Source: Planctomycetota bacterium (GTDB taxonomy: Bacteria; Planctomycetota; UBA11346). Taken from it: a stretch of DNA of 64,000 nt. Both the position numbers and the translations under genes were made by a program. Location of the stretch: contig JBBQSO010000007.1 in the NCBI GenBank assembly GCA_038213805.1, forward strand, positions 9,127-73,126, read 5' to 3'. Below, piece by piece: positions 1,185 through 50,438 of the stretch (within the stretch, counting starts at the first letter, position 1; the number at the start of each line of letters is the position of its first letter). The notes beneath the pieces are model-generated. The model made no database searches, was not told the origin of the DNA, and was given only the letters and a program-made list of their open reading frames with translations.

Positions 1185-1883
1185 TCAGCGCCTAACAATG
1201 CCATCCTTCACCGCACGACGCACCGCGGCGGCGATGCAGTTGACGTGCAGTTTGCGGTAGATGCAGCGCGTCACGTAGTCGACGGTGTGCTGGTTCAGCT
1301 CCAGGCGGCCGGCGATCTCCTTCTTGCTGAAGCCGTCGACCATCAGTTCGAGCACCTCGCGTTCGCGCGCGACCAGGCCGGGGTCGTCGCGGACGGTGGG
1401 CGCGCCAACGGGCGCCGCCTGCATTCCATCTGAGGCCGCGGACGGCGCCTCGCCCGGGGCGATGCGCGCGAACATCGCCAGCACGCGGCGTGCGACGCGC
1501 GGATTCATCGGGGCGCCGCCGGCCAGCGTCTCGTCGATGGCGGTGAGCACGGTGGCGAGCGGTTCGGATTTGAGCAGGTAGCCGGAGGCGCCGGCGCAGA
1601 CTGCCTGGAAGATCTTGTCGTCATCTTCGAACACCGTCAGCACCACGATGCCGGTGTCGGGCGCGACCTGCTTGATGCGGCGGATGCCTTCGATGCCGTC
1701 GATGCCGGGCAGGCCGATGTCGAGCAGCACCACGTCTGGACGTTCGCCGGCGGCGAGGCGCGCGAGGGCGTCCTCGCAGCGCCCGAATTCGGCCAGTGCG
1801 TCGCCGGCGCGCCGTGCGGTCAAGGCGCGCGCGGTGGCGCGGCGGAACGCGGCGTTGTCCTCGATGATCCACAGCGTGGTCAT
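1185..1883 (-). CDS. Two-component response regulator, NarL/FixJ (LuxR-type HTH) family
   Basis: REC domain (IIEDN...VVLLDIGLPGIDGIE...VVLTVFEDDD) plus a C-terminal LuxR HTH (REREVLELMVDGFSKKEIAGRLELNQHTVDYV). Its start overlaps the stop of the kinase gene (ATGA at 1880-1883). Confidence 0.9.
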   Translation of the reverse strand: MTTLWIIEDNAAFRRATARALTARRAGDALAEFGRCEDALARLAAGERPDVVLLDIGLPGIDGIEGIRRIKQVAPDTGIVVLTVFEDDDKIFQAVCAGASGYLLKSEPLATVLTAIDETLAGGAPMNPRVARRVLAMFARIAPGEAPSAASDGMQAAPVGAPTVRDDPGLVAREREVLELMVDGFSKKEIAGRLELNQHTVDYVTRCIYRKLHVNCIAAAVRRAVKDGIVRR

Positions 1884-3925
1884 GACGCGCCACCCGGCGG
1901 AGCCGGCGCCGGCCCGCGCGGCGTGTGCGCGGTGGTGGCGCGCTGCCGCCCGGACAGGGCGGCGGGGCGCAGCCGCGCCAGCGGCACGATGCAGCGGATC
2001 AGCGTCCCACGCCCCGGCGCCGACTCGATGACCAGCCGGCCGCCGAGACTGCGCGCGCGCTCACGCAGGCTGGCGAGGCCGACGCCACCCTGCACCGCGC
2101 CGGGATCGAAGCCGCGGCCGTGGTCGCGGATCTCCAGGCGGGCTTCGTGGCCGTCCACCGCCAGGCCGAGCTCGACCGCGCCAGCCTGGGCGTGGCGCAC
2201 GATGTTCGCGAGCGCCTCCTTGGCGATCAGGAAGAGCTCGCGTCGCGCCAGCGGCGTCCAGTCGACGGGAATGGCGGCGAGCGGCGCCGTCCAGCGCACC
2301 GCGACGCCGCCGAGCATGCGCTCGGCCAGACGCTGCAGGTGGCTGGCGAGATCGGGGCCGGCCTCCTCGCGCGCGCCGGCCAGCCACAGCACCTCGCGCA
2401 TGCCGTCCATGCTCTCATGGGCGATGCGGCCCACCTCGCGCCAGTCCTCGCCCTGACCGGCGGCGGGCGCGGCGTCGGCACCGAGCTCGCTGAGGCGTGC
2501 GATCGCGGCGAGGTTGCTGCCGATCTCGTCGTGCAGGTCGCGAGCCAGGCGCCGGCGCAGGCCGTCGAGCTCGCGCGCACGGCGGCGGCGCAGGGCGAGC
2601 AGCCAGGCGCCCAGGGCCGCGAGCACGAGCGCGCCAACCGCGCCGCCCAGCCACCACGCGCGCCGGCGCGCCTCCTCCACGAGTTCGCTGCGTGCACCCG
2701 CGAGGCGTGCCAGCTCGCCGTCCAGATGCGCGCGCCGGTCCCACTCGTCGAGCCAATCCGGCAGCTCCATCAGGCGGCCATAACTGGTGTAGCCGTCGAC
2801 CAGCAGCGCGCGCGGCCAGGCATTGCTGTAGGTGCTGGGATCTTGGCTGGAGGTGACGGTGGCGTCGCGCGCGAGATTGCGGTCGCCGCTGTAGACCTCG
2901 ACCTCGGACAGCGAAAAACGCCCATGATCGCCGGGTGGCAGGCTGACGCGTACGTAGCGCGCGGTGACGCCGGCGGCGCGCAGGGTGATGGCGTTGTCGC
3001 CGGGGTTGGGGTAGTCGGCGGCGGTGCTGTCGAGGATCATCGCCGGCGCCACGAAATCCGCGTTGGTCGCGGCCTGGACGCGGAAGCGCGCGGGGAAGCT
3101 GAAACCCGGGATGTCGGCGCCGAGGCGCGCGTGCGTGGCGTAGAGGCGCACCTCCTGAAGCTCGTGCGGGGCGCCCAGATCGAGGGTCATGCTGCTCGAC
3201 TCGCCTTCGCCCGCTGGGCCGGCGAACAGCCCGTCCCAGGCGAGCAGCGCAACGTGGATGGGCGGGCCGAGCGCGGTGCGCCCGTCGACCAGCGCGCCGA
3301 GCGTCCAGCGCGGCGGCAGGTTGAGGCTCGACGAAGCGGTCACCGGACGGCCGATCGCGACGTCGCGTGGGCCCGACAGCACCACCAGTTCGCCGAGGGC
3401 GTAGAAGTACTGGCCGTTCTCCTGCGCCAGCTTGGTGACGGTGACGCGTACGTAGCGCGCGCGCCGGCCGCCGCCCTGCACCACCAGCGGCGCGATGCCC
3501 GGGTCGGGCAGGTCGGCTTCGGTGCAATCAGCGACGCGCACCGGATCGGCGAAGTCCGGGCTCGCCGCGAGATCGATGCGGAAGCGCGGCGGGAAACCAT
3601 AGGTGCGCTTGGCATCGGCCTGCCAGTCGAGCACCGCGGGGATCAGCGCGATGCGCTCGATCGGCAGCTCCTCGCCGAGGTCGACCTGCACCCAGGGCGG
3701 GGTCAGCGGAGGCGTGCCGAGGCGTGGATGCTGATAGCCGAACTGCGGCGCGGTCTGACCAATCACCGGCGTGCCGAGGACGGCCAATTCCTGCTGAGTG
3801 CGCTGGCGGTCCGCGTCGAGCGCGCGCAGCTCGGGGCTCAACCAGCCCAGCCACGCGCCATCGTCGGCCGCGAACGCCAGCGCCGGCAGAAGCGCGAGCA
3901 GGAGCGGAAGCGGACCCAGGGGCAT
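1880..3925 (-). CDS. Sensor histidine kinase (HisKA_3/HATPase_c, NarX-like) with a signal peptide and two periplasmic F5/8-type-C (discoidin)-like domains
   Basis: Signal peptide MPLGPLPLLLALLPALAFA. Two repeats of the RYVRVTV...GELVVLSG / RYVRVSL...SEVEVYSG type. A TM segment (WWLGGAVGALVLAALGAWLLAL), then the dimerisation/H-box LARDLHDEIGSNLAAI and an ATPase domain (GRGFDP...GLASLRERA). Confidence 0.85.
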   Translation of the reverse strand: MPLGPLPLLLALLPALAFAADDGAWLGWLSPELRALDADRQRTQQELAVLGTPVIGQTAPQFGYQHPRLGTPPLTPPWVQVDLGEELPIERIALIPAVLDWQADAKRTYGFPPRFRIDLAASPDFADPVRVADCTEADLPDPGIAPLVVQGGGRRARYVRVTVTKLAQENGQYFYALGELVVLSGPRDVAIGRPVTASSSLNLPPRWTLGALVDGRTALGPPIHVALLAWDGLFAGPAGEGESSSMTLDLGAPHELQEVRLYATHARLGADIPGFSFPARFRVQAATNADFVAPAMILDSTAADYPNPGDNAITLRAAGVTARYVRVSLPPGDHGRFSLSEVEVYSGDRNLARDATVTSSQDPSTYSNAWPRALLVDGYTSYGRLMELPDWLDEWDRRAHLDGELARLAGARSELVEEARRRAWWLGGAVGALVLAALGAWLLALRRRRARELDGLRRRLARDLHDEIGSNLAAIARLSELGADAAPAAGQGEDWREVGRIAHESMDGMREVLWLAGAREEAGPDLASHLQRLAERMLGGVAVRWTAPLAAIPVDWTPLARRELFLIAKEALANIVRHAQAGAVELGLAVDGHEARLEIRDHGRGFDPGAVQGGVGLASLRERARSLGGRLVIESAPGRGTLIRCIVPLARLRPAALSGRQRATTAHTPRGPAPAPPGGAS

Positions 3926-6418: not shown

Positions 6419-8524
6419 ATGTCCTGTGCCGCCTGCGGAGCCACCCTGCTGGCCGACGCGCGCTTCTGCATCATTTGCGGAGCCACGACCAAGGCGCAGC
6501 CGGCGGCCGCCGCTGCAGTGCGGCCACCGGCATCGTCCCAACCGTCCCGCGCGCTCACCGCGCCAGCGGTTGCCGCCGGCGCGGTAGCGCTGACCGGCAG
6601 CGCCGAGTCGGACCTCCTGCATCTGGTCGACGGCTACCTGATGTGGAACCTGCACCCTGGCCAGGTCGCGCGCCTGATCACGCCGGCGCTGGCCGACAGC
6701 CTTGACGGCGCACGCGGCGTGGCGGTCAACGACGGCACGCGCGCACTGGTGTACATCAACGGCGCCCTGGCCGCCGACCTGCAACACGGCCTGTTCGACG
6801 TCGCGCAGACACCGGCTGCTGAAGCCGGCACCAGTGAGCCGGCAGGGCCCGCCGCCGCACGGCGCGGCGGGCTGTTCGCCTTTGTCGCGGCCGGCACCGC
6901 GCACGCGGCGCGCATGCTGCGCGGAGCGAGCGAAGCCGCCGCGGTGCCCGCCGTTCGTGAGGGCGCGCCGGGGACCGCGGGCGCGGCGCAGCTGGTGAGC
7001 GTGCTGCTGGTGCGCCAGGGACCGATGCCGCTCATCCTCTCGCTGACGCTACCCACCGCCACGGTCACCACCGCGGTGGCCGTGCAGCTGTTTGTCGAGA
7101 TCACTGATGCGGCGGCCTTCAGCCGCGCGCTGATGCAGGTGCGCCGCGAACTCGGCCTCGACGCGCTGGCCGTGGCGCTGACGCCGGTCGTCGAGCCGGC
7201 GCTGCGCGCGGTGCTGCGCACGGTGCCCGCGGAAGGCTCATCCGAACCCGGACTGGAACTGCGCGTGGCCGCGGCGATGGGCGAGGCGCTGCGCCTGGAC
7301 TGGGGCTTCCTGCGCATCGTGCGCGTCGCCACCGTCACCATGCGGCGCGACGAGCTCGAACGCCTGGCGAGATTCCGCGAGGCCACCTATCTGAGCGAGC
7401 AGGCGCTCGAGCAGGTCAGCGCCCGCAATGAATTCGCCAACCGCCTGCACCTCGAACGCAACCGCCAGCGCATCGACCAGGCGGCGAGCACCCAGCGCCT
7501 GCAGGCCGCGCTGACCGACATCAACCGCGACGAGCTGGTCGGGCGCGACGACCTGGCGCGCTTCACCCTGCTGCTCGACCACGGCCGCCGCCTGCGCGAG
7601 GCCGCGACCGAGGGCGACTACCAGGACGCCATCGCTGGATTGCGCCGCAGCGAGCTGCTGCGCGAGGACAGCGTCGCCTATGCCGCACGCGAGGCGCAGG
7701 AGCGCCGCGAGGACCACGCCCACCGCCGCCTGCACGCGCTCGAACTCTTCGACCTCAGCCGCCAGATGGAGAGCGACCAGGCGCGCCTGCAGTGGGAGTA
7801 CGGCATCGGCGACCAGCGCATCGCGCTCGCGCTGCAGCGCCGCCTGGGCGAGCACGCGGCGCGCTTCAAACTCACCGCCCTCGACCTTGAGGAGGAGCGC
7901 CTGCGCGACGATCACCTCGCCGAGCGCGAGCGCACCGCCGACGAGCGCCGGCGCAGCGTCGCAGGGCACGCGCACGAGGAGCGTCTGGCCCAGCTCGAGA
8001 TCGCCCGCCAGGCGCAGGCTCTGGGCGAAGACCGCCGCCGCGAAGAGCACGGGCGCACCCTGGCCGCCGAGGCGCAGCGCGCCCGCGACGCGCGCGAGGC
8101 CATCCTGGTCGAGGCGCAGCGCTGGGCCGGCATGACCGTCGAGCAGATCATCGCCGCCAACGCGACGCTGACCCCGGCCGCGGCCGCCGCGCTTGCGACC
8201 AAGTACCAGGCCGAGGCGCAGGCCAGTGGCGAGCGCTCCAAGGCCGAAGCCGCTGAGAACGCCGGCGACCAGCGCGCGCGCGCCGCTGAGAGCGGCAAGG
8301 ACGAGCTGCGCCGTTTCATGACCGACCAGCTCGCGGCGATGCAGGAACTGATGCGTCAGACCCTGGATTCCAACGCACGCATCGCCGGGGCCGGCCAGCA
8401 GGATGGGCGCCGGCCTGGCTGGGCCGCCGCAGCGCCGACCGCGGCGGCACCGACCTTCTGCAGCCGCTGCGGACGGGCGCTCGGGGCGAGCGGCTGCCCG
8501 GCCTGCGATGCGCGGCCGGCCTGA
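6419..8524 (+). CDS. Zinc-ribbon protein with a long ER/EA-rich coiled-coil region and a second C-terminal zinc ribbon (function unknown)
   Basis: Start taken at MSCAACGATLLADARFCIICGAT (a CxxC...CxxC zinc ribbon) preceded by GGAG. The middle part carries charged heptad-like repeats (ERERTADERRRS...EERLAQLEIARQAQALGEDRRREEH). The C-terminus is FCSRCGRALGASGCPACD. GC3 is high throughout. Confidence 0.6.
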   Translation: MSCAACGATLLADARFCIICGATTKAQPAAAAAVRPPASSQPSRALTAPAVAAGAVALTGSAESDLLHLVDGYLMWNLHPGQVARLITPALADSLDGARGVAVNDGTRALVYINGALAADLQHGLFDVAQTPAAEAGTSEPAGPAAARRGGLFAFVAAGTAHAARMLRGASEAAAVPAVREGAPGTAGAAQLVSVLLVRQGPMPLILSLTLPTATVTTAVAVQLFVEITDAAAFSRALMQVRRELGLDALAVALTPVVEPALRAVLRTVPAEGSSEPGLELRVAAAMGEALRLDWGFLRIVRVATVTMRRDELERLARFREATYLSEQALEQVSARNEFANRLHLERNRQRIDQAASTQRLQAALTDINRDELVGRDDLARFTLLLDHGRRLREAATEGDYQDAIAGLRRSELLREDSVAYAAREAQERREDHAHRRLHALELFDLSRQMESDQARLQWEYGIGDQRIALALQRRLGEHAARFKLTALDLEEERLRDDHLAERERTADERRRSVAGHAHEERLAQLEIARQAQALGEDRRREEHGRTLAAEAQRARDAREAILVEAQRWAGMTVEQIIAANATLTPAAAAALATKYQAEAQASGERSKAEAAENAGDQRARAAESGKDELRRFMTDQLAAMQELMRQTLDSNARIAGAGQQDGRRPGWAAAAPTAAAPTFCSRCGRALGASGCPACDARPA

Positions 8525-8534
8525 GCGATCCGCC

Positions 8535-10097
8535 ATGATGCTCTGCCCCAGCTGCGGCCGCGCCTACGATCCACCGGCGCGCTTCTGTGCGACCTGCGCA
8601 CAGAGCGACGGTGCGCCGGTGGCGCTGCGCGCAGCGGGTGCGGCGCAAGCGGGCGCCGCAGCCCCAACGCGGCCCGCCGTCCAAGCCCCCACGGCCGCGG
8701 GCGGCGCTGCAGCGCGCGCTCCGGCGGCCCCGCCCACGCAGACGGCGGCCCCGCGGGCCGGGCCAGCCGCCACCCCGGGCAAACCGCAGGGCATCGCCAT
8801 CGGCGAGCAGGCGGTGGTCAGCGGCGACGTCATCGGCCACCAGGTGCAGCACATCTACCAGGGCACCGCGAACGTCACCAACATCACCCAGGTCGACGAC
8901 ACCAAGCGCATGCTGAGCTGCGCGATCTGCGGCCTGGGCGGCACGCTGGCGGACGGATTCCACGCTTGCCCGGGCTGCGCGCGCACCACCTGCGCAAAGC
9001 ATTTTGACGAGCAGGCGCGGCTGTGCGCCGACTGCCGCGATTCGGCGTCGACGGTCAAGGAAGACCTCTACCGGCAGCAGGTGCGGCGCTTCCTGGAACC
9101 GGGCTGCGTGATCGACGCGGTCGAACGCCAGCAGCTCGACGAATCGCGCCAGTCCCTGGGTCTGAGCGCGGTGCGCGCCGCCGACCTCGAACGCTCGGTC
9201 AAGGACTGCCACCCGGGTGGCGGCTGGGGCGCGCTGCAGCAGCGCCAGCTCGAGGCCGCACGGCGCATGCTGATCGCCGGCGCAGTCACCCCCGAGGCGC
9301 TCTCCTACCTCGAACCGCTCGCCCAGCGCCACCCCGAACACCACGAGCTGCAGGCGCTGTGGCTGGAGGCCCTCGCCGAGGCCGACCCGGAGCGCGCCCT
9401 GGAGCTGAGCGCACACGCCGCGGTGGACGTGCCCGCGCATCCCCTGGTGCGCGCGCGCCTGCTCGCGGCGCGCGGCCGCTACCAGGAGGCCATCGATCTG
9501 CTCGACGACGCGCGCACCAAGCAGCGGCTTGAGGTCGCGCACGTGCGCTTCACCGCCGCCGCCGCCGAACTCGCCATGCTGCAGGCGCGCGCCACCGGCA
9601 ACCGCCTGTATCTGGCGGACGCCGAGGCACGGCTCGCCGAGATCACCGGCAGCCGCGACCCCTACGTCCAGGCGTTGGTGCGCCTGCTGGCGCTGCTGCG
9701 CGGCGCCACGCCGCCGCCGCCGCCCGCGGTGCCGGCCGCGGACCTGGCGACGCGGCGCGCGCTGCTGCAGGAGGCCGCCGCGCGCGCCACCATCCAGGCG
9801 GCCGCGCCACCACCGACCGGCCGCATCCTGCGCAGCCACGCGCCGCGCTCGGCGACGGTCTGGACCACCGCACCGGGCCAGGCCGGCTACATCCGCGACG
9901 AGGACGCACGCGGCAGCGGCTCCAGCTCTGCGCAGCGTGCGATCGTCCCTGGCGCCAAACAGGTGCCGCTCGACAAACCCCCGCGCGAAGGCGACCCGCC
10001 CACCACGCGCGTCTTCCACCGCCTGACGCCGACCGAGCGCATCGCCGACGAGGGTGACGCGCCGAACGTGGCCCCGCCGGGGGACGGGGCGATCTGA
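8535..10097 (+). CDS. Zinc-ribbon / zinc-finger protein with Pro-Ala-rich linker and TPR-like helical repeats (function unknown)
   Basis: N-terminal MMLCPSCGRAYDPPARFCATCAQ zinc ribbon. A second Cys/His cluster (CAICGLGG...HACPGCARTTCAKHF...CADCRD). Helical repeat region (ALSYLEPLAQRHPEHHELQALWLEALAEADPERALELSAHAAVD...RGRYQEAIDLLDDART). Confidence 0.6.
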   Translation: MMLCPSCGRAYDPPARFCATCAQSDGAPVALRAAGAAQAGAAAPTRPAVQAPTAAGGAAARAPAAPPTQTAAPRAGPAATPGKPQGIAIGEQAVVSGDVIGHQVQHIYQGTANVTNITQVDDTKRMLSCAICGLGGTLADGFHACPGCARTTCAKHFDEQARLCADCRDSASTVKEDLYRQQVRRFLEPGCVIDAVERQQLDESRQSLGLSAVRAADLERSVKDCHPGGGWGALQQRQLEAARRMLIAGAVTPEALSYLEPLAQRHPEHHELQALWLEALAEADPERALELSAHAAVDVPAHPLVRARLLAARGRYQEAIDLLDDARTKQRLEVAHVRFTAAAAELAMLQARATGNRLYLADAEARLAEITGSRDPYVQALVRLLALLRGATPPPPPAVPAADLATRRALLQEAAARATIQAAAPPPTGRILRSHAPRSATVWTTAPGQAGYIRDEDARGSGSSSAQRAIVPGAKQVPLDKPPREGDPPTTRVFHRLTPTERIADEGDAPNVAPPGDGAI

Positions 10098-22589: not shown

Positions 22590-22824
22590 GTGACGGACCC
22601 TTTGAAGATGATGGCGCCAGGATAGTACCCCGCGCCGTAGGCGACGCTGAGTCGCGGGGCGCGGCTGCCCACCATGCATGAGTCGGTCCGACATGCCCGC
22701 CACGGACCCGGATACACCGGCGACCGGCAGCACGGCGCGCCAGCACGACCATGCGCGCCAGCGGCATCCGCCCTGCGTGCCCTGCCCCGCTGCCTTTTTC
22801 GGCTGAAGTCCTAGGATCCCGTCC

Positions 22825-23898
22825 ATGCCCCTGACTCCCAGCGGTCGTCGCCCATCCGGCAAGGCTAGCGAAGTCATGGCCATCCTGGAACAGCGCATCC
22901 GGGGCGGCGACTACCTGGTCGCGCCGCTGCCAAGCGGCCGCGAGCTGGCGGCCGAACTGGGCGTCAGCTACGTGACCGCGCGCAAGGCCATCGGCGCGCT
23001 CCAGGCGCAGGGTCTGCTCTCGCGTGGTGGCAATGGACGCTTGGTGCTGGGTGGGCGGCGCGCCGGCGGTCAGCTCGCCCAGCTGGCCTTCATCGCCCCC
23101 AACTTCCCGTCGCTGGAGGTGATGCGCTGGCGCCTGGCCATCGACCGCCTCGCCGACGAGCACCCGTGCGCGGTGAAGAACCATTTCTTCCGCCACTGGC
23201 ACGATCCTGCGCTGATCGACATCATCGAACGCAGCGATGGCGCCTTCCTCTATCCCAGCGCCGAGAAGGTGCCGGCCGCGTTCGCTGCACGCCTGCGCGC
23301 GCGCCGCATCGTGGTCATCGACCAGGACTGGAGCGCGCTTGGCGTGCCCTCGATCTGCTGCTTCCCCGCAACCTTCGTGCGCGCCCTGCTCGACCACTGC
23401 CGCGCGCGCGGGCACCACCGCATCGCAGTCCTCAACACCCAGCCGCACGATCATGCCATCCAGGCGCGCCTCGCCGCCTACCACGGCTGGGCCGTCGACC
23501 ACGACATGGTCCCGTACCTGATCGACGCCCCGGTGCTCGTCGGCGAGGATCCCGCGGTGCATGCGCAGGCGGTGCTGGCCGCGGCGCTGCGCGGCGGCGT
23601 GCGCGACTGGAGCGCGTTGTTCTGCACCACCGGCACGGTCGCGCTCGCGGCGATGCGCGCGCTGCACCTCGCGGGCATCGCGCCCGGTCGCGACGTCGCC
23701 GTCTGCACGCTGAACGACGACGGCCTGGGCGAACTCGTCATCCCCTCGCTGACCGCGCAGGCGCCCGTCGACCCGACGCCCTACCTGCGCCAGACGCTGA
23801 CGTGGATGCTCGATCCGCAGCGGGCGTGGCAGGGCGCGACGCTGATCCAGCCAGAGGGCTGCGAAGTGGCGGTCAGGGAATCGACGGGCGCGGGGTGA
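22825..23898 (+). CDS. Transcriptional regulator with GntR-type HTH and a LacI/periplasmic-binding-protein-like sugar-binding domain
   Basis: GRELAAELGVSYVTARKAIGALQAQGLL HTH, then a PBP-type fold (RIVVIDQDW...RIAVLNT...ALFCTTGTVALAAMRAL). An alternative start is MAILEQ at 22876. Confidence 0.7.
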   Translation: MPLTPSGRRPSGKASEVMAILEQRIRGGDYLVAPLPSGRELAAELGVSYVTARKAIGALQAQGLLSRGGNGRLVLGGRRAGGQLAQLAFIAPNFPSLEVMRWRLAIDRLADEHPCAVKNHFFRHWHDPALIDIIERSDGAFLYPSAEKVPAAFAARLRARRIVVIDQDWSALGVPSICCFPATFVRALLDHCRARGHHRIAVLNTQPHDHAIQARLAAYHGWAVDHDMVPYLIDAPVLVGEDPAVHAQAVLAAALRGGVRDWSALFCTTGTVALAAMRALHLAGIAPGRDVAVCTLNDDGLGELVIPSLTAQAPVDPTPYLRQTLTWMLDPQRAWQGATLIQPEGCEVAVRESTGAG

Positions 23899-24014
23899 TG
23901 GCGGCGTGCGGGATGCGGGGTGAAGGTGCCATGCGAACCCAGAGCGGGAAAAGCGTGATGGCGGCGTGCGGGCCGCGGGGTGAAGGTGCCATGCGAACCC
24001 AGAGCGGGAAAAGC
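23895..24014. repeat. Tandem duplication of a 60-bp unit (2 copies, 2 mismatches)
   Basis: gtgatggcggcgtgcggga/cc-t/cgcggggtgaaggtgccatgcgaacccagagcgggaaaagc occurs twice back to back, starting at the regulator stop codon. Confidence 0.75.
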
Positions 24015-24139
24015 GTCGAGCCCAGGACTGCAGGCCACCGCATCATCCGCATCTTCTGGTGATTGCGTTGGCGTCAGCCGGGCGCGGAAATCCACGTAGC
24101 GATTTCGAGAGTGCCAACGGCGCGCCCTATCGCAGCCCA

Positions 24140-25020
24140 GGGCAATGCCCTACCCATTACCCACACCTGTTGTCGACAGCGCATAATAATCGGAAATCTG
24201 CCGATTTCTGAGCCTTCCGAGCAAGCGACATCGACTAGCCCAGGGCGTCAACCCTGCTCACTACCCACAAGTCGCAGCACTCGGGCACTGACCCTCATAT
24301 CAACCCAGTCCTGTCCGCAGCCCGCGGAGCGGGCGACACATCGTAGCCCAGGGCGTGAGCCCTGGGAACCTCGGTTAGAGAGGAGGATAGGAGCCCGCGG
24401 AGCGGGCGGCACAGGTCCTGCCACTTCGAAATGAGGTGAATGCCGGGTGAGTCGTGATGATCCACGGACATCCCCAGATCGGGCCCCAATGGTCGTACAT
24501 TACCGCTGAGCCTGCTGTGTCGCCACTCCGTGGGCTGGCCCGCAGACACGCCGCGCGACCCAGGGCTGGGGGCCCTGGGCTACGATGTGTCGCCCGCTCC
24601 GCGGGCTCTGAGTGGCTGCGATTCGACTGACGTGTGGGTAATGGGTAGGGCTGAAGATTGGCGCCGCGCCATTGGCGCTCACGACAGGCGCCCTGCATTT
24701 TTCAATGAATTGGAGGGGTTGGTCGACTTGTGGGGAATGAGCAGGGCGTTGTCCTGGGATGACCGTCTGGTCGCGCCGTTGGCGCTCACAGCAGACGTAC
24801 TTCCGGCAAATGGTCCCGGACGACCCTGACTTGCGGGTAATGAGCAGAGCTCACGCCCTGGACTGCGCTCTTCCCCCCGCTCCGCGGGCGGAATTGCCGA
24901 TGACCGACCATCTCAGCGCTTTGTCACAGGTCACCCAGCCCCACATGGAGTTGCGGGTGATGAGCAGGGCGTTGCCTTGAGCCAGGAGAGGTCGCGCCCT
25001 TGGCGCTCGAGATCGCAATC
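24140..25020. repeat. Non-coding island of REP-like hairpin elements arranged as roughly 100-120-bp degenerate tandem units (forward copies from about 24560 to 25020, inverted copies from about 24140 to 24370)
   Basis: Recurring blocks: TTG[TC]GGGTAATGAGCAGGGCGTTG (four times forward at about 24632, 24730, 24832 and 24951; reverse at about 24150 and 24245); GCGCC-N-TTGGCGCTCAC near-palindrome (three times); CCCGCTCCGCGGG hairpin (four times); CCCAGGGC-N4-GCCCTGGG hairpins. No convincing ORF spans 23899-25445. Confidence 0.6.
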
Positions 25021-25274
25021 GCGATCGTAGAGGCGCTCCTCTACCACAACATGGAAGCAACGAGCAGGGCATCCGACACCGGATTTCATCCATGCGGCCG
25101 AAGAACGCCGCGGATCAGACGCAGCACTGCCCGCGTCGCATGCCGGCATCCCCCGCTCCACGTGCCCCTGTTCACCAACTTCGTATCCCTCCTCCTCCAT
25201 GCCACGCGACACCATCCGTCGTCGTCACACACGGACTGTCGCGTTACTGGCCGCCTTTCGCCACGCAGCGGAAC

Positions 25275-25298
25275 GTTTCCTAAAATCAGGGGATCGTC
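25275..25298 (-). promoter_or_regulatory. Degenerate copy (opposite strand) of the GATC-N3-CCGATTTTYAGACA motif found upstream of two other glycoside hydrolase genes
   Basis: The reverse complement reads cgacGATCcccTGATTTTAGgaaac, compared with GATCgtgCCGATTTTTAGACA (42700) and aATCccGATTTTCAGACA (63526). About 150 bp upstream of the GH-A/PA14 gene. Confidence 0.3.
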
Positions 25299-25445
25299 GA
25301 CCGCGTGTCCGCCAGGGATGGCCGGGACCCGGATATGGCGATCTCCATCCCCGCTCGCGCGCGCACTGCGGTCATTCGCGCTGCGCAGTTCCATTCCGCA
25401 CCATCGCCATCGTCCTCGCCCACGCCTCCCCCTCCTGAGGTGCCC

Positions 25446-28091
25446 ATGCGCATGCCATTCCTCCCCGTCGCACTCGCTCTGGCTGCCTGCGCGCCGCTGG
25501 CCGCCTCCGACGTGTTCGCAGATTTCGCCATCCCCGACCTGCTGCCGCTGGCCAAAAAACACAGCGTGATGAACACCGGCGCGATCAAGCTCAAGAGCCA
25601 CTACGACCGCGACCTAGGCAAGCTCGGCGAACTGAAGGCGGGCTCGCTGCGCCTCGACCTGTCGATCGGCAAGCGCGACGATGCGCCGATGTGGTGGGAC
25701 GTGGTCAATGGCCCGGATCCCGACCACCTTGGCTACAATTTCGCCAACGTTGACTGGCTGGATGGTGAACTGACCAAGCAGGACACCCTGCCCTACTGGG
25801 GCCTCGTCTATATCCCGATACCATTCCAGGATCCACGTCAGCCAGCGGACGACTGGCGCTTCCTCGATCCCGACCGCTTCAACTGGGACCGCTGGCAGGA
25901 GGCTTCACGCACCTTCGCGGGTCACGTGCGCGGCCTGCACCAGCATGGCTACCTCGAGGCGCTGAACGAGCCCGACCTGTACCTGCCGTGGATCACCGGA
26001 ACCGACACCGAAAACCTCAAGAAGGGATATTTCCTGCGCGTGCCCAACATGGACACCCAGCTTGAGCCGACCACCTTCCAGATGTACGTGCGCACGGCCA
26101 AGGGCTTCAAGGAGGGCGATCCGGACGCGGTCGTCGGCGGTCCGGCGCTGGCGGGCGCAGCGATGCAGTGGACGGGCCCGTTCCTCGACTATGTCGCGGG
26201 CAACCAGGCGCCGATCGACTTCTTCTCGTTCCACGTGATCAGCGGCGACGATCCGTTCAGCGTGGTCATCCCGCGCACCCAGGGCGTGCGCAATCAGCTC
26301 GCCGAACGCGGCTGGGCGCACTCGGTCGAGATCCACATGAACGAGTACAACGCCTACGGTCATCCCTGGGACCAGGACACCAACTCCAGCGACCTCGCCG
26401 TGCATGTCATCGAGAACTGCCACGACCTGCTCGGCCAGCACGACCTGACCGTGATCAGCTGGGCACAGGCGATGGACAACAGCCAGGTACAGGGCGCAGT
26501 GAACGGCGACCAGACCGCCGGCCTGATCGACTGGGAGGGCAACCGCCGGCGCGCCTTCAGCGCCTTCGCGATGTACGGCGACATCCCGATGCCGAGCTTT
26601 CGCAGCAGCGAAACTGGCAGCATCCACACCATGGCCGGCGCCGACGCGGGCAAGGCCGGCATCATCGTGTGGAACAGTGATGGCGCGCAGGCCAGCGACG
26701 TGACCGTGACCGCGCACCACATCCCCTTCGCGAACGCGGTGTTCCGCCTGGTGGTGATCGACCCGACCGGCACCGGCAACCCACAGGGCCTGAACCCGTC
26801 GGTGCAGGAGACCCAGGCGATCACCAATCCGATGTTCCGCATCGTGCACCTGCCGCCGCGTTCAGTCGCCTACCTGTCGTGGACCAGCACCACCGCACCA
26901 GCGCTGGCGGCGCCCGCAGGCCAGGTGGTGCGCGTCCACCACGACTACCCGAACCGCGCCACCCACTCGTGGGCGGAATACGACCGCCGCGCCTGGACCG
27001 CGTGCCTGGGCATGGACGACGCGAACGACCTGCAGATCGTCGGCACCACGGTGCGCGAGCTCGCAACCACGGTGCACGTGTCCTGCCGCACGGCCGGCGC
27101 GCCCGCCAGCGGCACGCTGGGCATGCGCATCGACTACCTGACCGGCGGCGGCTATACGAAGAGCGTGCTCTTCCACGGCGGCCTGGCCGCTGGCTTCACT
27201 CTCCCGTGGGGCAGCGGGCGCCCCGTCGACCAGAGCGTGGCGATCGCGCTCGGTGACGCCGACATCATTCCGGGCGATTTCGCACCGGCGGGCTGGCTCG
27301 GGCAGGCGGTGGTGACGTACGTGATGAACCATACTGGGAACGGCACGCGTGCGACCTTCGTGCTGAGCGCCGGTGGGTCGACGGGGACGGGAACAGGAAC
27401 GGGAACGGGAACGGGAACGGGAACGGGAACGGGAACGGGAACGGGAACGGGAACCGGAACCGGTACTGGCACAGGGACCGGGACGGGTCTGCCCACCGGA
27501 GGCAGCGGCGTCGGCCTGACCGGCCAGTACTTCGCCACGAGAGACCTGAGCGGCCCGGCGCTGACGCGCACCGACCCGGTGATCGATTTCACCTGGGACA
27601 CCACGCCACCCATCGCGGGCATCGGTCTGGCCGACTACAGCGTACGCTGGACCGGCACCATCCAGGCGCCGACCAGCGAGCCCTACACCTTCCACGCGTT
27701 CAGCGACGATGGCGTGCGCCTGACGGTCGACGGCCACCAGCTCATCGATCATTGGGTCGACCAGGGGGTGACGGAATCCACCGGCACCATCGCCCTGACC
27801 GCCGGGCACAGCTACGCCATCACCATGGAATACTACCAGCACGCTGGCGGCGCGACCGCGCGGCTGCTGTGGAGCACGCCCTCAAGTCCGACCGCCGCCG
27901 TGGTGCCCCAGTCGCGGCTCATTCCGGCGGCGGGTGGCGCAGCGGGGACGGGAACGGGTGGCGGTACTCCGGCGATCTCAAGCACGAACGGCAGCGGCTG
28001 CGGCTCAGGAATCGCGGCGGTGGTGCTGATGCTGAGCGCACTGTCGATGATACGCCTGCGCGGCGCGGGTGGGCGTCAGCCGCCGGAATGA
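25446..28091 (+). CDS. Secreted clan GH-A glycoside hydrolase (GH39/GH5-like) with (Gly-Thr)n linker, PA14 domain and Cys-Gly/TM/Arg C-terminal sorting-like tail
   Basis: ATG preceded by GAGG. Signal peptide MRMPFLPVALALAACAPLAA. LEALNEPDL motif (NEP acid/base of clan GH-A). A run of about 19 GT dipeptides. PA14 block (GQYFATRDLSGP...YTFHAFSDDGVRLTVDG...YAITMEYYQ). Ends GSGCGSGIAAVVLMLSALSMIRLRGAGGRQPPE. Confidence 0.8.
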   Translation: MRMPFLPVALALAACAPLAASDVFADFAIPDLLPLAKKHSVMNTGAIKLKSHYDRDLGKLGELKAGSLRLDLSIGKRDDAPMWWDVVNGPDPDHLGYNFANVDWLDGELTKQDTLPYWGLVYIPIPFQDPRQPADDWRFLDPDRFNWDRWQEASRTFAGHVRGLHQHGYLEALNEPDLYLPWITGTDTENLKKGYFLRVPNMDTQLEPTTFQMYVRTAKGFKEGDPDAVVGGPALAGAAMQWTGPFLDYVAGNQAPIDFFSFHVISGDDPFSVVIPRTQGVRNQLAERGWAHSVEIHMNEYNAYGHPWDQDTNSSDLAVHVIENCHDLLGQHDLTVISWAQAMDNSQVQGAVNGDQTAGLIDWEGNRRRAFSAFAMYGDIPMPSFRSSETGSIHTMAGADAGKAGIIVWNSDGAQASDVTVTAHHIPFANAVFRLVVIDPTGTGNPQGLNPSVQETQAITNPMFRIVHLPPRSVAYLSWTSTTAPALAAPAGQVVRVHHDYPNRATHSWAEYDRRAWTACLGMDDANDLQIVGTTVRELATTVHVSCRTAGAPASGTLGMRIDYLTGGGYTKSVLFHGGLAAGFTLPWGSGRPVDQSVAIALGDADIIPGDFAPAGWLGQAVVTYVMNHTGNGTRATFVLSAGGSTGTGTGTGTGTGTGTGTGTGTGTGTGTGTGTGTGTGLPTGGSGVGLTGQYFATRDLSGPALTRTDPVIDFTWDTTPPIAGIGLADYSVRWTGTIQAPTSEPYTFHAFSDDGVRLTVDGHQLIDHWVDQGVTESTGTIALTAGHSYAITMEYYQHAGGATARLLWSTPSSPTAAVVPQSRLIPAAGGAAGTGTGGGTPAISSTNGSGCGSGIAAVVLMLSALSMIRLRGAGGRQPPE
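27382..27487 (+). repeat. In-frame hexanucleotide repeat (GGGACG/GGAACG/GGAACC)n encoding a (Gly-Thr)n linker
   Basis: acggggacgggaacaggaacgggaacggga... runs for about 100 bp inside the GH-A/PA14 gene. Confidence 0.85.
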
Positions 28092-28245
28092 ACGGCGCTT
28101 GAAGCGCGACGCCGGGGATGACTGGGGTCGATGCGCGACGCAGCCGGCCGACACCTCCACCAGCCCACGCCTTGCATCCTTCCTGTTCCAGGCATTCTGC
28201 CCCGCATCGAGGGCTCTCCCATGCGGCTGTGGATGATGCTGGTGG

Positions 28246-29181
28246 GTGACCCTGGCCAGCACTTCGGTGCCGAATCCCGCGCTGACCACCGTCACCTACG
28301 ACCTGCGCGTGCTGACCGCGCCGCTCCATGACCGCAAAGGTCCCAACCTCGAACCGCCGGTGCCGCAGGGCTCGCACATCGGCCCACCCACCGAGCCCGA
28401 GAGCAAGCCGGAGATCAACGAGTTCATCGAACTCGTTCAGAAATTCGTCGCCCCCGAGGCGTGCAGAGGCGAAGGCGTCGCCATCAGCGAGTATAATGGC
28501 GCGGTGGTGGTGACCCAGGTTTCAGCAGTGCAGCAGCTGGTCCGAGCCGCCTTCGCGCAGCTGGAGCGGCGCCGCGCCACCCAGCTGGTCTGCCGTTTCT
28601 ACCGCTTGACCAAGCCACCCGCCGCCGCGGGCGCGACCCTGGACGCCGAGCAGTGGGCGGCCGTGGCCCCCACCGCGACGCTGGTCGAGGCCGCGCTCGC
28701 CCACCACGGTATGCGCCAACACATCGCCAGCGGCCACGAGCGGCTCTATGTCCAGGACCTGGACCTCAACCAGTTCGTCCACGTGCCGATCGTCGCCGCG
28801 CTCGGCACCGGCATCGACCTCGACCTGACCGCCACCGCCACCATCGCTGGCGTGCTGGTCGACCTGCGTCTGATGGCCACCGTCGACGCGCAGTGGCCGA
28901 TGCGCGAGGTCAGCGACGACCACGGCCAGGTCGTGGGGGTCATCACCACGCCACGCCTGACCACCGATACGTCGTCCGAAACCCGCCTCATCCCGCCCGG
29001 CGGCGCGGCCATCTCCCGCTGCGGGACACGCGCCTACGCGCTCACCTGCGAGGTGCTGAGCGACGCAGGCGGACACCCGTTCGGACCCTGGCACGCGGAT
29101 GGCACCATCGGCGACAAGCCCGCCCCGCCGGCGGACCCGGCGCCCACGCCGGCGGACGGTCGGTATCGGGGAATCCCGTGA
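28246..29181 (+). CDS. Hypothetical protein (no recognisable domain); GTG start as given by the ORF track
   Basis: GC3 is strongly biased toward G/C over all 311 codons, which is real coding signal. There are no TM helices or known motifs. Adjacent to an orphan receiver protein. Confidence 0.5.
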   Translation: MTLASTSVPNPALTTVTYDLRVLTAPLHDRKGPNLEPPVPQGSHIGPPTEPESKPEINEFIELVQKFVAPEACRGEGVAISEYNGAVVVTQVSAVQQLVRAAFAQLERRRATQLVCRFYRLTKPPAAAGATLDAEQWAAVAPTATLVEAALAHHGMRQHIASGHERLYVQDLDLNQFVHVPIVAALGTGIDLDLTATATIAGVLVDLRLMATVDAQWPMREVSDDHGQVVGVITTPRLTTDTSSETRLIPPGGAAISRCGTRAYALTCEVLSDAGGHPFGPWHADGTIGDKPAPPADPAPTPADGRYRGIP

Positions 29182-29212
29182 ACTTCTGAGGCGCGGCAGC
29201 GCCGCAGGCCCC

Positions 29213-45900: not shown

Positions 45901-47484
45901 GCCGCGCCGCTGCTCGCCCATGAAGCGTTCCCGTACACCAGCGGCGCCATCGACTGGAATGGCCAGGGCGGCGAGAACGGCTTCGCCGAACCTTGGAACC
46001 GGCTGGTCGGCGGAAATGGCCAGGGCCAGGTTCCGGTGTATCCCGCAAGCTACGTGGCTGGGCTTTCCGCTTTCGGAGTCACCGCCACGGGCGGCGCCGT
46101 GCAGCTGACGAGCGTGCAGCAAATCCCCGGAAATACCAACAGCCAGAAGAACCCCGAGTATGCGCGGCGCCTGCTGACCGGGTTCAGCGATGGCGGCTCT
46201 GCTGGCGCCAACGCCTGGATCAGCTTCATCGGCAAGGGTACGACTCCCGGCACAGGCTATCTCGGCGTCGGCCTCTTCAACGGCAACACCGAGAAGATGT
46301 TCATCGGACAGCGCTTCGGGATGAGCAACTGGGGTGTCGAGGTCGCCGGTGGTGGTGGATCCGCCGACAGCACCTCCAGCCTGTCGAGCACCGCCTTCGT
46401 GGTGGTGAACATCCGCGTGCTCAGCGGCAGCTCGCGGGAGGTGCGGCTGTGGGTGAACCCGACCCCTGGAACGTCGGCGCCGAGCGATGCGGGCGCCGCC
46501 CTGGTCACCACGGGCACGGAGCTGTCATTCGACACGCTGCGCCTGCGCGGCGACAGCATGGTATCCAAGCTGACCGTCGACGAGTTGCGCGTGGGCGCAT
46601 CCTTCGCCGATATCAGCGGCGTCACCGTGGCGCATCCGACGCTGCAGGTGTCGCGGGCCGGCAACGCGATCGGCGATGGCGGCAGCGATGTGGTCGTCGG
46701 AAGCGCTGCGGGCACCGCCCAGGCGCTGACCTTCGTACTGACGAATTCAGGCTCCGCCCCGCTTTCGGTCACCACACCGGTCACGGTGTCGGGCATGACG
46801 AACTGCTCTGCGTCGGTCACGACCCAACCGGGCAGCGCGATCGGCACTGGAGCCACGTCCGACCTGGTGGTGACCGTGACGCCGACCGCCGTCGGCGCGT
46901 GGTCGCTCGCGCTGGCGGTGGTGAACACCGACAGCAATGCCACCCCGTACGACTGGACGGTGACGGGCACGGCGGGCGCCGTCGCGGTTCCCGGACTCGC
47001 CATCACCCGCAGCGGGACGACCATCGCCGATGGCGGGACGGATGGGGTCGCCGGTGCAGTCGCCGGCTCGCCCCAGGCGCTGACCTACGTGCTCGCCAAC
47101 AGCGGCGGCGCTGTGCTCGGAGTGACCGTTCCCGTGACCCTGTCGGGCGTGACCAACTGCACCGCGACCGTGACGACGCAGCCTGCTGCATCGATCCCCG
47201 CCGGTGGAAACGGCACGTTCGTGCTGACGGTCACCCCGACAGTCGCCGGGCCGTGGTCGTGCTTGGTCTCGATCACGAACACCGACGTCAGCCACGCGCC
47301 CTACGACTGGACCGTCTCCGGCACCGCGCAGGCGGCCGTCAGCGGGCCGACGGGCGGCTCGAGTGGTGGCTCGAGTGGTGGCGGCAGCCATGGCTGCGGC
47401 CTGGGGCAGGGCATTGCGTTGGTACTCATGCTCGGGTTCAGCCTGATGTGGCGATTCAGGAGCGGGCGTCGGCCCACGGGCTGA
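42940..47484 (+). CDS. Secreted GH31-family glycoside hydrolase (alpha-glucosidase/alpha-xylosidase-like) with multiple C-terminal Ig-like/beta-sandwich domains and a Cys-Gly/TM/Arg sorting-like tail
   Basis: RBS AAAGGAAAAG. Signal peptide. GH31 nucleophile region GIVGYWHDEGDEG (compare GIDGFWNDMNEP) and acid/base region RHSYLGSQRYGYGVWSGDISTDW. Ends GGSHGCGLGQGIALVLMLGFSLMWRFRSGRRPTG. Confidence 0.85.
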   Translation: MSLAPRRDTTLSIRSSRLLSTALGGLGCLALSTAVAAAEPGNVTLQAQTAESVTLANAGGDRVFVRVLKPNLLEVDYRPGNQTSPMTLIMDPGFAAKTWSPGTVSIADGASEVVLTTSAMVVRIAKSPCRVNVYETDGTTRIFGEAAAAGMTDARVKFEFDANLNWYGIQSAPSTRGREMGSTTLGDYVTKTFVTQLTRQNVTPAVDLNARWHGSETGPFAWTTGAASKRGFGVLWDNDGGSVAFSSTTLEMNKTNERCVSAVSSTKLDTLWFAMVGTPTEITQAMIELSGRPQMFPKYAQGFGNTEWGINEEELRSHINAYRSRHIPLDHFILDFDWKAWDLNDYGNFEWNLRATNVAASDFRGFPAASDTTLKTYTDAMGVKLMGITKPRLHVDTVQGAVITAGAATGATWRNAGSVGWWLPSGSPSTFKTDYWGSQRGRSDKVGNLNFFIPAARAWYAQNSIDRAFDKGIVGYWHDEGDEGPDSGDIPSASNFYNPLYQEGIYTYQRANKPGTRVWSMNRHSYLGSQRYGYGVWSGDISTDWRTLKTEAPRMLQTINAGMARTGTDAGGTAGSADSIGTIATDGVSKNVPTDELYARWLQFAAMQPTFRIHGVYLINRQPWFHGSEAEIAATEVIRLRSRLMPYIYAHDRIYSETGVPFVQPLVWDYPKDANVAERTDAWMFGRALLAAPILEPRATVTSPDGSLSMAGTTSKSIYLPAGTWYDYFRGTVHAGGATFIYPVSTSTLRELPLFIKKGAIIPSLPTALDHVAAAPITTVRLDMFPDTALTSFTYYDDDGVSYQYESGTFFKQAVSVQQSGSTVTVAFADKQGGFAPALQHYLIAINKFSATTVAGFTSFASQAALEAASGEGYAIGSGVHGSITYIKVAAGSARTITATGTNPGLGIATTTLPAATRNAPYDAQLGADGLGASSTWSVTPALPAGLVLDARTGRITGAATVAGSTSYTFQVSSGATASKALTLTVTAAPLLAHEAFPYTSGAIDWNGQGGENGFAEPWNRLVGGNGQGQVPVYPASYVAGLSAFGVTATGGAVQLTSVQQIPGNTNSQKNPEYARRLLTGFSDGGSAGANAWISFIGKGTTPGTGYLGVGLFNGNTEKMFIGQRFGMSNWGVEVAGGGGSADSTSSLSSTAFVVVNIRVLSGSSREVRLWVNPTPGTSAPSDAGAALVTTGTELSFDTLRLRGDSMVSKLTVDELRVGASFADISGVTVAHPTLQVSRAGNAIGDGGSDVVVGSAAGTAQALTFVLTNSGSAPLSVTTPVTVSGMTNCSASVTTQPGSAIGTGATSDLVVTVTPTAVGAWSLALAVVNTDSNATPYDWTVTGTAGAVAVPGLAITRSGTTIADGGTDGVAGAVAGSPQALTYVLANSGGAVLGVTVPVTLSGVTNCTATVTTQPAASIPAGGNGTFVLTVTPTVAGPWSCLVSITNTDVSHAPYDWTVSGTAQAAVSGPTGGSSGGSSGGGSHGCGLGQGIALVLMLGFSLMWRFRSGRRPTG

Positions 47485-47603
47485 GGGCATCGTCCGCCAG
47501 GTGCCCGTGGAAGCGATCCCCGTGATCGATCCCGCATGGATGGGCGAGGGCTCTCAACCGACGAAATCCATGCGGACACGCCCCTACCATCGAGCCAACG
47601 CCA

Positions 47604-47888
47604 ATGAGCCAGGTCACCACCCGCACCTATCGTCAGAAATCAGACCACGCTGCCAGGGCAGACGAAGTAACCTGCCTGGGCTGCAAGAAAAGTGCACCGT
47701 GTGCATGCGGAGACGCCGCCAAGGACCCGGTGCGCATCTTCCAACAGCTGTTCGCGACCGCGATCCGCGCGTCCCGCCAACCAAAATTGTATCTGAGCGC
47801 GTGGGTCGAGGCACATCAGAGACGCGTACGGTGGGGCAGTCGGCGCCTCAGCCGGTGGAGCAAGGGCCCTGAAGGCCACATGGAGTGA
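47604..47888 (+). CDS. Possible small basic Cys-containing protein (94 aa), hypothetical
   Basis: An ORF in an otherwise ORF-poor 0.9-kb gap. CLGCKKSAPCACGD cluster. Local GC is lower than the surroundings, and there is no RBS or homology support. Confidence 0.2.
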   Translation: MSQVTTRTYRQKSDHAARADEVTCLGCKKSAPCACGDAAKDPVRIFQQLFATAIRASRQPKLYLSAWVEAHQRRVRWGSRRLSRWSKGPEGHME

Positions 47889-50372: not shown

Positions 50373-50438
50373 ACCGGTGCCGGCGCTCGTCCGCACGTGC
50401 TGCCCAACGCCGTCTGGCTGGGCCGCTTTCCCGGCTGA

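Follow-up and report, generated by a model that had tools for sequence, protein, structure and literature searches.

The regulator–GH39 spacer and its repeats

The window analysed here, a 64-kb stretch of a Planctomycetota genome (contig JBBQSO010000007.1), contains at positions 23899-25445 a spacer filled with hairpin-forming repeats, referred to below as the island. Two kinds of sequence make it up: repetitive extragenic palindromic (REP) units tagged with the tetranucleotide GTAG, and terminal repeats of a Tn5-like insertion sequence (IS) of the IS4 family. On the left the island adjoins a regulator gene with GntR and Peripla_BP_3 domains, and on the right a gene (25446-28091, + strand) for a protein with GH39 and PA14 domains, for which an exact-sequence look-up gave no record. 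These Pfam assignments agree with the initial annotation, made from the sequence alone, which placed the island between a sugar-responsive regulator and a glycosidase. Neighbouring genes encode proteins with PSCyt, PSD and DUF1501 domains.

The same annotation considered the entire spacer to be gene-free, and no credible coding signal was found. The codon-position GC contrast falls from ~0.4 in the flanking genes to 0.05-0.19 across 23800-25300; none of the listed open reading frames (ORFs) of the island reaches the GC content at third codon positions of ~0.87 typical of real genes; and tblastn searches of the island with six Y1 transposases and a Tn5-like protein (E ≤ 50) returned only noise. 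The rightmost part of the spacer, 25217-25445, is a conserved region upstream of the GH39 gene, 87% identical to the related loci L122 and L249, and it carries the only promoter-like site found by a promoter scan (25258-25286). Judged by homology with relatives, the extra DNA proper thus extends from 23899 to ~25216 (~1.3 kb). The description of the genome as otherwise tightly packed is roughly right, the island being one of the two longest runs without coding signal in the window. The second long stretch (47251-51000) shows weak coding periodicity; ~900 nt of it (47485-48400) contain no large ORF and are followed by an ORF of 657 aa (48399-50372, GC 59-67%), and no REP or IS-end copies were found in it.

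At the left edge of the island lies a 60-bp tandem duplication, identified by Tandem Repeats Finder (TRF) and by the repeat search, which begins on the regulator stop codon and belongs to the DNA missing from relatives. Neither its unit nor the spacers between the other repeats have copies elsewhere in the window or in the related loci L122, L249 and L250. Contigs of two independent short-read assemblies, L001 (end 3598) and L002 (end 1441), carry an identical regulator gene and both stop 46 nt past its stop codon; as both contigs break inside the duplication, it is real in other samples and breaks assemblies. A core 20-mer, TTGYGGGTAATGAGCAGGGC, occurs with at most three mismatches four times on the + strand (24632, 24728, 24831, 24951) and twice on the - strand (24147, 24251), while shuffled sequences yield none and the rest of the 64 kb lacks it. 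The principal hairpin, H1 (CCCAGGGC-N4/5-GCCCTGGG), is found at 24347-24366 and 24559-24579, the small hairpin GCCCGCGGAGCGGGC four times and GCGCCNTTGGCGC three to four times, and a perfect 36-nt inverted repeat joins 24319-24354 and 24572-24607. The duplication, the four forward core units, their inverted copies (two) and the interspersed small perfect hairpins of the initial annotation were thus all recovered.

The REP units follow one plan: a hairpin, H2, is succeeded by a linker of ~8 nt, the GTAG tag and H1 (8-bp stem, 4-nt loop, CCCAGGGC-N4-GCCCTGGG), often with a second small hairpin ~20-25 nt beyond H1. On the GTAG strand, the intact unit reads GCCCGC GGA GCGGGC, 8 nt, GTAG, CCCAGGGC GTGA GCCCTGGG. 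Two such units form an inverted doublet, similar to a REPIN (REP doublet forming hairpins), with a centre of ~100 nt between the arms; as single-stranded DNA the doublet folds with z = -7.98. It is surrounded by at least six decayed single units, in which GCAG, CTAG or CAGT occupies the GTAG position. The units were compared with covariance model R1, built from 123 aligned REP units of other genomes. The core copies are designated below as left (L2, L3) and right (R1-R4) ends. The features are as follows.

22825-23898, + strand: regulator gene (GntR + Peripla_BP_3); its stop codon is the left island edge
23895-24014: 60-bp tandem duplication, two copies, 58/60 identical (96-97%), TRF score 230, family D2
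24107-24149, + strand: decayed REP unit 1, H2 GTGCCAACGGCGC, GCAG for GTAG, 5' arm and loop of H1 (CCCAGGGC AATG CC); weak covariance-model match at 24102-24144 (+, 9.5 bits)
24150-24166, + strand: end L3, CTACCCATTACCCACAC (outer to inner), fused to the unit 1 REP apex; together with 24632-24651 a 20-nt inverted repeat without mismatch (pair I8)
24211-24253, + strand: decayed REP unit 2, degenerate H2, CTAG for GTAG, CCCAGGGC GTCA ACC; 74% identity with the intact unit 24319-24364 (family D4)
24254-24273, + strand: end L2, CTGCTCACTACCCACAAGTC, fused to the unit 2 REP apex; complementarity of 91% with the end at 24724-24746 (pair I7)
24319-24607: intact REPIN-like inverted doublet, 289 bp; covariance model R1 58.5 bits (+) and 43.8 bits (-)
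Left arm of the doublet: H2 24320-24334, GTAG 24343-24346, H1 24347-24366, inner hairpin 24393-24407
Right arm of the doublet: degenerate inner hairpin ~24517-24541, H1 24559-24579, CTAC 24580-24583, H2 24592-24606
24629-24648, - strand: end R1, GACGTGTGGGTAATGGGTAG on the + strand, outer tip facing right; 16 nt, CATTACCCACACGTCA, identical to the end of an element in L122
24649-24690, - strand: REP remnant at R1, loop kept, 3' arm truncated, H2 variant GCGCCATTGGCGC, family D3
24725-24744, - strand: end R2, GACTTGTGGGGAATGAGCAG
24745-24789, - strand: REP remnant at R2, GGC GTTG TCC TGGG ATGA ... GTC GCGCCGTTGGCGC; weak covariance-model match at 24759-24794 (-)
24828-24847, - strand: end R3, GACTTGCGGGTAATGAGCAG
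24848-24897, - strand: REP remnant at R3, AGC TCAC GCCCTGG ACTG ... CCCGCTCCGCGGG, covariance model R1 18.5 bits, E = 0.018; 82% complementary to 24320-24364 (pair I1)
24948-24967, - strand: end R4, GAGTTGCGGGTGATGAGCAG
24968-25015, - strand: REP remnant at R4, GGC GTTG CCT TGAG ... GTC GCGCCCTTGGCGC; weak covariance-model match at 24986-25015 (-)
25016-25216: outer right island part, absent from L122, whereas L249 aligns with the window from 25201; repeat families D5 and D7
25059-25070: possible fifth right end, badly decayed, AACGAGCAG then GGC
25149-25165: H2-like remnant within the outer right part
25217-25445, + strand: conserved GH39 upstream region, outside the island

From left to right, the island thus comprises the 60-bp duplication, unit 1 with L3, unit 2 with L2, the intact doublet, ends R1-R4 with reversed REP units, and possibly a fifth right end. 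The three units on the left are all GTAG-first on the + strand and the five on the right are all reversed; the GTAG/H2 side of every unit points outward, and the layout is mirror-like. The units are spaced by 96, 103, 120 and 104-108 nt (a period of ~100 nt), decay progressively away from the island centre and are 61-81% identical; the spacers between them (21-57 nt) are mutually non-homologous. When the 64 kb were scanned with covariance model R1, the matches of 58.5, 43.8 and 18.5 bits were confined to the island; of 46 weak matches, 13 were located in this same 1 kb, in the predicted orientations.

Presence in relatives and the REP family elsewhere

Comparison with related genomes, which had been proposed together with the initial annotation, revealed that the island is absent from two of them and differently built in a third. 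In L122 and L249 (syntenic, 87-88% nucleotide identity), ~25 nt separate the regulator stop codon from the point where homology resumes, at window position 25217 in L122 and 25201 in L249. In L250 (91%) the site is filled, its left part being built differently: a H2-GAGC-TTAGGGC GTGA GCCCTAA-CCACTACCCACAC unit is followed by a homologue of REP unit 1 (L250 4727-4760), and the contig breaks there. The regulator gene, up to its stop codon, is 87-91% identical at the nucleotide level to those of all three relatives. L122 has, in the spacer that precedes its regulator gene on the upstream side, a ~205-bp element (8451-8655) similar to miniature inverted-repeat transposable elements, with Tn5-like ends CTGCTCATTACCCACACGTC ... 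GACTCGCGGGTAATAGGGAG, an internal 32-nt palindrome (8521-8587) and no obvious target duplication; the window has no element at this place. The empty site in L122 and L249, the different filling in L250 and the element next door in L122 together indicate that the island is recent, changeable mobile DNA.

These loci also differ at other sites. A ~1.1-kb block directly 3' of the GH39 gene (window 28084-29211), containing an ORF of 311 aa with no Pfam match (28246-29181), is absent from both L122 and L249; at this site L122 has 109 nt, its GH39 ORF extending to 1097 aa, and L249 has 34 nt. A Methyltransf_21 gene (L122 6149-6946; L249 1510-2352) lies between the beta-lactamase-like and GDSL lipase genes, and is missing from the window (21302/21303). 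L250 contains a gene for a 484-aa protein with the HXXSHH domain (1761-3215) between the GDSL lipase and regulator genes, at the place of a 218-nt spacer in the window (22591-22808).

Relatives of the REP units were found in other phyla. When one genome per species was scanned for a pattern combining GTAG and H1, GTAGCCCAGSGCNNNNGCSCTGGG, at least 119 stretches matched; among the matches listed, most came from Acidobacteriota, Planctomycetota and Verrucomicrobiota, many formed inverted pairs 115-130 nt apart, some metagenome-assembled genomes (MAGs) had several stretches each, and one Opitutia MAG supplied seven contigs. The 134 distinct units obtained from the scanned loci have one architecture (123 could be aligned), and the doublets of L054, L062, L011 and L059 are identical in architecture to that of the window. 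In the 123 aligned units, changes on both sides of the H2 stem were counted in 103 cells, compared to 27 in shuffles, and 92.9% of cells were paired, compared to 24-55% when the partner was slid. Matches between genomes had E-values of 1e-8 to 1e-11.

In L034 and L066, an inverted REP pair encloses a gene of ~148 aa, the product of which matches the Pfam family Y1_Tnp (6.5e-21) and, at 55.1 bits (cutoff 55), the NCBIfam family IS200; the nearest solved structures of the Y1 proteins are ISDra2 and IS200-like TnpA. The gene was present in eight of the fetched loci (tblastn), and in seven it was bracketed by inverted matches to covariance model R1. A GTAG tag joined to a palindrome is a hallmark of REP elements, and the REPtron/TIRtron arrangement is known for GTAG repeats, in Acidobacteria in particular; REP clusters are known in which singletons are reiterated together with DNA that flanks them, and the Planctomycetes-Verrucomicrobia group is among those with GTAG REPs (PMC3733652). 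The initial assignment to REP-like repeats is therefore upheld by the tagged palindrome, the intact inverted doublet, the Y1 genes flanked elsewhere and the variable presence among relatives. The alternative label, a bacterial interspersed mosaic element (BIME), does not apply in the strict sense, since orientations do not alternate: the left units point one way and the right units the other.

Several variants of these repeats were also observed. In six Bacteroidota loci (L006, L008, L046, L061, L101 and L102, from Chitinophaga, Hymenobacter and Cytophagales) the same H1, GTAGCCCAGGGCTTCAGCCCTGGG, usually follows CTAC or CTCC and lacks H2; in L102, such copies with H1 alone lie on either side of a gene for a Y1 transposase (6582-6992). 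In an Opitutia MAG (L062, 5530-5760), a second GTAG-tagged repeat, GCCGTAGCCACTTGGCGAAGGCTGG..., is located between two doublets beside the same small hairpin, which suggests that several REP subfamilies have the H2 module in common.

The covariance-model and folding checks of the units gave, apart from the stable fold of the doublet, a match above the gathering score to the Rfam family Acido-Lenti-1 (RF01687): 24366-24319 on the - strand, with 44.9 bits (gathering score 37). The second copy (24559-24607, + strand, 32.9 bits) and all decayed units are below the gathering score. The Acido-Lenti-1 motif was rated as probably RNA by Weinberg et al. (2010), whose alignment includes Koribacter and Lentisphaera copies and tandem copies ~200 nt apart (PMC2864571). 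In L018 (809-1064), a near-identical direct repeat contains two Acido-Lenti-1/REP units in the same orientation at a distance of 232 nt, a pair that recalls the tandem copies of the Lentisphaera alignment.

The units could accordingly be viewed as genes for a small structured RNA (sRNA), Acido-Lenti-1, in two arrays transcribed divergently from the island centre. The two Rfam matches do point away from the centre, H2 covaries, and there is the published grading of the motif. However, covariation cannot separate RNA from hairpins of single-stranded DNA; the motif forms inverted pairs bracketing Y1 transposase genes; only two of the ~9 units gave Rfam E-values ≤ 1; the promoter scan detected no promoter-like site inside the array; and two close relatives lack the locus. 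The wobble pairs (three G:T and no A:C) lie on the GTAG strand, opposite to that of the Rfam model, but are too few to decide. We consider the sRNA explanation quite improbable. Most likely, the Acido-Lenti-1 'sRNA' and the GTAG REP are one element seen from opposite strands, although no statement of Acido-Lenti-1 as a DNA-level element was found in the literature searched. The suggestion of a decayed tandem-repeat RNA locus finds no support apart from the Rfam match, for which this DNA element, seen from the opposite strand, is the better reading.

Tn5-like ends in REP hairpins

The conserved core, TTGYGGGTAATGAGCAG, by which the units were originally defined, does not belong to the REP: it is the terminal repeat, ~20 bp long, of an IS4-family element resembling Tn5. 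The consensus of the ends in the window, read from the tip inward, is CTGCTCATTACCCRCAAGTC; it is represented by six ends, possibly seven. A metagenome scan with the core pattern TGYGGGTRATGAGCAGRGC is uninformative on dispersal, nearly all of its 120 matches being chance or codon-driven occurrences in coding sequence (peptide ALLITR/H), and the exact core was absent from the first 123 loci fetched. The informative match is L176, in which a gene of 470 aa lies within 21-nt inverted repeats of the core sequence, AAGCCCTGCTCATTACCCACA / TGTGGGTAATGAGCAGGGTTT. Its product has the domains DDE_Tnp_1, Tnp_DNA_bind and Dimer_Tnp_Tn5 and matches the transposase of Tn5 at 2e-32; at E ≤ 1e-30, its relatives number more than 3,500. 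L244/L245 contain an 80%-identical copy of this element with a close variant of its ends. Compared with the outside end of Tn5, the window consensus agrees at 13 of 19 positions, including the CTG tip and the inner CAAGT. The initial exclusion of an IS element therefore stands only insofar as the island has no transposase gene (by tblastn, neither the window nor the island has a Tn5-like remnant); the repeat core itself is an IS end.

In all six ends of the window, the tip meets H1 of the REP at one and the same position: a GTAG-like tag is followed by CCCAGGGC, the loop, GCC, and then CTG... of the IS. Insertion into such hairpins was also seen in other genomes. In L109, from an MAG of the Acidobacteriota, a relative (46% identical), the ends of which nearly equal the mosaic end of Tn5, is located within a REP unit, and the hairpin apex is duplicated over 10 bp, CCCGG[CGCTAAAGCA]-IS-[CGCTAAAGCA]CCGGG CTAA ... 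GCCCCTTTGGGGC; in L246, another relative is flanked by a 9-bp duplication, GGTCACGCC, of the apex CCCCG-GGTCACGCC-CGGGG. For a third relative, represented by one copy each in L247 and L248, the 9-bp duplications are ordinary ones and lie in DNA without a hairpin; hairpin preference is therefore not universal in the Tn5-like family. REPs are known as targets of IS elements, including ISRm22 of the IS4 family in Sinorhizobium meliloti, and Tn5 prefers palindromic 9-bp targets (Tobes and Pareja, 2006, PMC1525189).

A different explanation of the constant junction is a chimeric unit, [H2-GTAG-H1-Tn5-like end], which would have arisen from one IS insertion into a REP and would then be copied as single units by the Y1 enzyme or by both enzymes. 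Six junctions at one position, all with the GTAG/H2 half outward, are what such a unit would produce; the same pattern, seen on both sides of an intact IS in L244/L245 and on one side in L176 and L145, points in the same direction, as do the non-homologous spacers, which independent insertions predict. In L250, the 5' arm TTAGGGC pairs with GCCCTAA, which includes a variant end tip, and this could be a compensatory change. On the other side, the fused units fold no better than shuffles, L109 and L246 represent plain target-site insertion with duplications, and in the lineage of the window no copy was seen beyond one genomic site, the exact-pattern metagenome scan being swamped by coding matches. 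On balance, we regard copying of a chimera as unlikely. Its structural corollary is doubtful to the same extent, namely that the IS tip (CTG) rebuilds the 3' arm of the REP hairpin and that a unit of ~85 nt builds mirror arrays with a period of ~100 nt around a resident doublet. If true, two unrelated transposases (HUH tyrosine and DDE) would have one substrate in common, and Acido-Lenti-1 would be reassigned as DNA ends of an IS200-like transposon family across several phyla.

Origin of the island and comparison with known systems

Taken together, the data make it probable (about 0.7, in our estimate) that the island consists of accreted mobile DNA of the non-autonomous kind, GTAG REPs and Tn5-like IS4-family ends, in the spacer between the regulator and GH39 genes. 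What it is composed of, to which families its parts belong, where the junctions lie and in which relatives it is present is shown by the sequences. As to which enzymes acted in trans, and in what order, we infer the following. First, the REP hairpins would form in single-stranded DNA. Second, a Y1 tyrosine transposase supplied in trans would recognise them, and the element would be cut and rejoined; as an inverted REP pair brackets an IS200-like Y1 (HUH) gene elsewhere, the usual mechanism of that family may be assumed. Third, a DDE transposase preferring the palindromic H1 apex would have hit the REPs repeatedly, as suggested by related Tn5-like IS elements that insert at hairpin apices with duplications of 9-10 bp. 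Finally, of the Tn5-like element only the ends would have survived in the island.

Local satellite or otherwise decayed DNA, formed by duplication of one ancestral unit without any mobile origin, would account for the regular period (96, 103, 120 and 104-108 nt) and mirror-like layout, for the true tandem duplication at the left edge and for the confinement of the repeats to the island within 64 kb. Yet inter-unit spacers share no similarity, both unit types have clear relatives elsewhere beside their transposase genes, and related genomes present an empty site and a differently built filled one; the E-values of the cross-genome matches and the flanking transposase genes make chance matches very unlikely. 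A degraded protein-coding gene would be at variance with the lack of coding periodicity and of tblastn remnants. Both possibilities seem to us hardly credible.

Several observations weigh against the accretion of REPs and IS ends as set out above. The first group concerns the enzymes and their dispersal. The ~148-aa Y1 protein scores 24.8 bits with the NCBIfam model of REP-associated tyrosine transposases (RAYTs), REP_Tyr_transpos (cutoff 80), and the Y1 proteins do not match the solved TnpA_REP structure (E ≤ 1), so these proteins do not fall in the RAYT clade. The 64 kb contain no Y1 and no Tn5-like transposase gene; no further REP or IS end was found in the window, nor in 23 kb of L122 except the one L122 element. 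With one cluster and no other copies in the 64 kb, the window lends no support to dispersal of the family in the source genome. The second group concerns the junctions. The fold of the IS-fused units is no more stable than that of shuffled sequence (z between +0.2 and -1.8). In the window and in L244/L245, both end types carry the outward GTAG/H2 half and no clean duplication is present (the best candidate among the window end pairs, L2/R2, agrees at 7 of 10 positions), while insertion into one REP predicts two REP halves and a direct duplication; the same-half pattern is thus unexpected. Plain insertion into one REP was accordingly rejected as an explanation of every end, left and right ends both having the GTAG-side half. 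Tandem duplication and nested 'Russian-doll' self-insertion were ruled out because the spacers are mutually unrelated while the units remain 75-95% alike, and neither of them, given these non-homologous spacers, explains the period of ~100 nt. A scheme that would fit is insertion into each of the two REPs of a doublet with subsequent recombination; several rounds of it would be needed, however, which is not parsimonious.

For the host genome the island matters little: it is mobile-DNA debris, dispensable in close relatives, and its absence from two sister genomes marks it as ordinary genomic debris rather than a new gene or system. At most, its hairpins may separate the two genes as a terminator or insulator. 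The wider significance lies in the families involved. Acido-Lenti-1, found mainly in Acidobacteriota, Planctomycetota and Verrucomicrobiota, behaves as a GTAG REP or as the structure at the ends of IS200-like Y1 genes, and its matches should not be taken as regulatory RNA genes without expression data. The Tn5-like IS4 members that insert precisely at a hairpin apex extend REP targeting by IS elements to new phyla, and IS insertion into REP hairpins explains short-read assembly breaks at such loci.

Among known repeat systems, a CRISPR array consists of near-identical direct repeats of 24-48 nt with unique spacers of similar length. The window units differ in identity, period and orientation, being degenerate, with a period of 96-120 nt and present in both orientations; the initial exclusion of CRISPR is thus supported, as judged from the repeats (no search for cas genes was made). 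TALE-like repeats (those of transcription activator-like effectors), iterons and integron attC sites were considered and dropped, as their unit sequence, spacing and motifs do not match. In the BIMEs of E. coli, REPs alternate in orientation and are regularly spaced, whereas the window units have one orientation per side. With Acido-Lenti-1 the units have in common the two-hairpin motif and the conserved GCUAC linker; the Rfam family is defined as an sRNA gene on the CTAC strand, while here the motif forms inverted pairs around Y1 genes and is an IS target.

The closest parallels are the GTAG REPs, REPINs and REPtrons (Nunvar, 2010; Bertels and Rainey, 2011; Di Nocera, 2013, PMC3733652), in which, as here, GTAG stands at the foot of a GC-rich palindrome, the repeats are extragenic, inverted copies surround a Y1 (HUH) tyrosine transposase gene, and Planctomycetes, Verrucomicrobia and Acidobacteria are among the hosts. 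The present units differ from them in the extra small hairpins (H2 and often the inner one) beside the main palindrome, from canonical RAYT systems in the IS200-like score of the linked transposase, and from dispersed REP families in that one cluster is seen, known from 64 kb. For the IS ends, the counterparts are ISRm22 and Tn5/IS50, with a Tn5-like transposase, CTG-tipped ends of 19-20 bp and duplications of 9-10 bp. The window differs from these in having kept the ends only, without a transposase gene or clean duplications, and in the same GTAG-side REP half at left and right ends. ISRm22-like targeting, i.e., insertion in the palindromic REP apex, preferably within REP clusters, is likewise observed in the relatives described here. 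The island thus adds new members to known kinds: GTAG REPs/REPINs with their Y1 transposases, and REP-targeting elements of the IS4 family.

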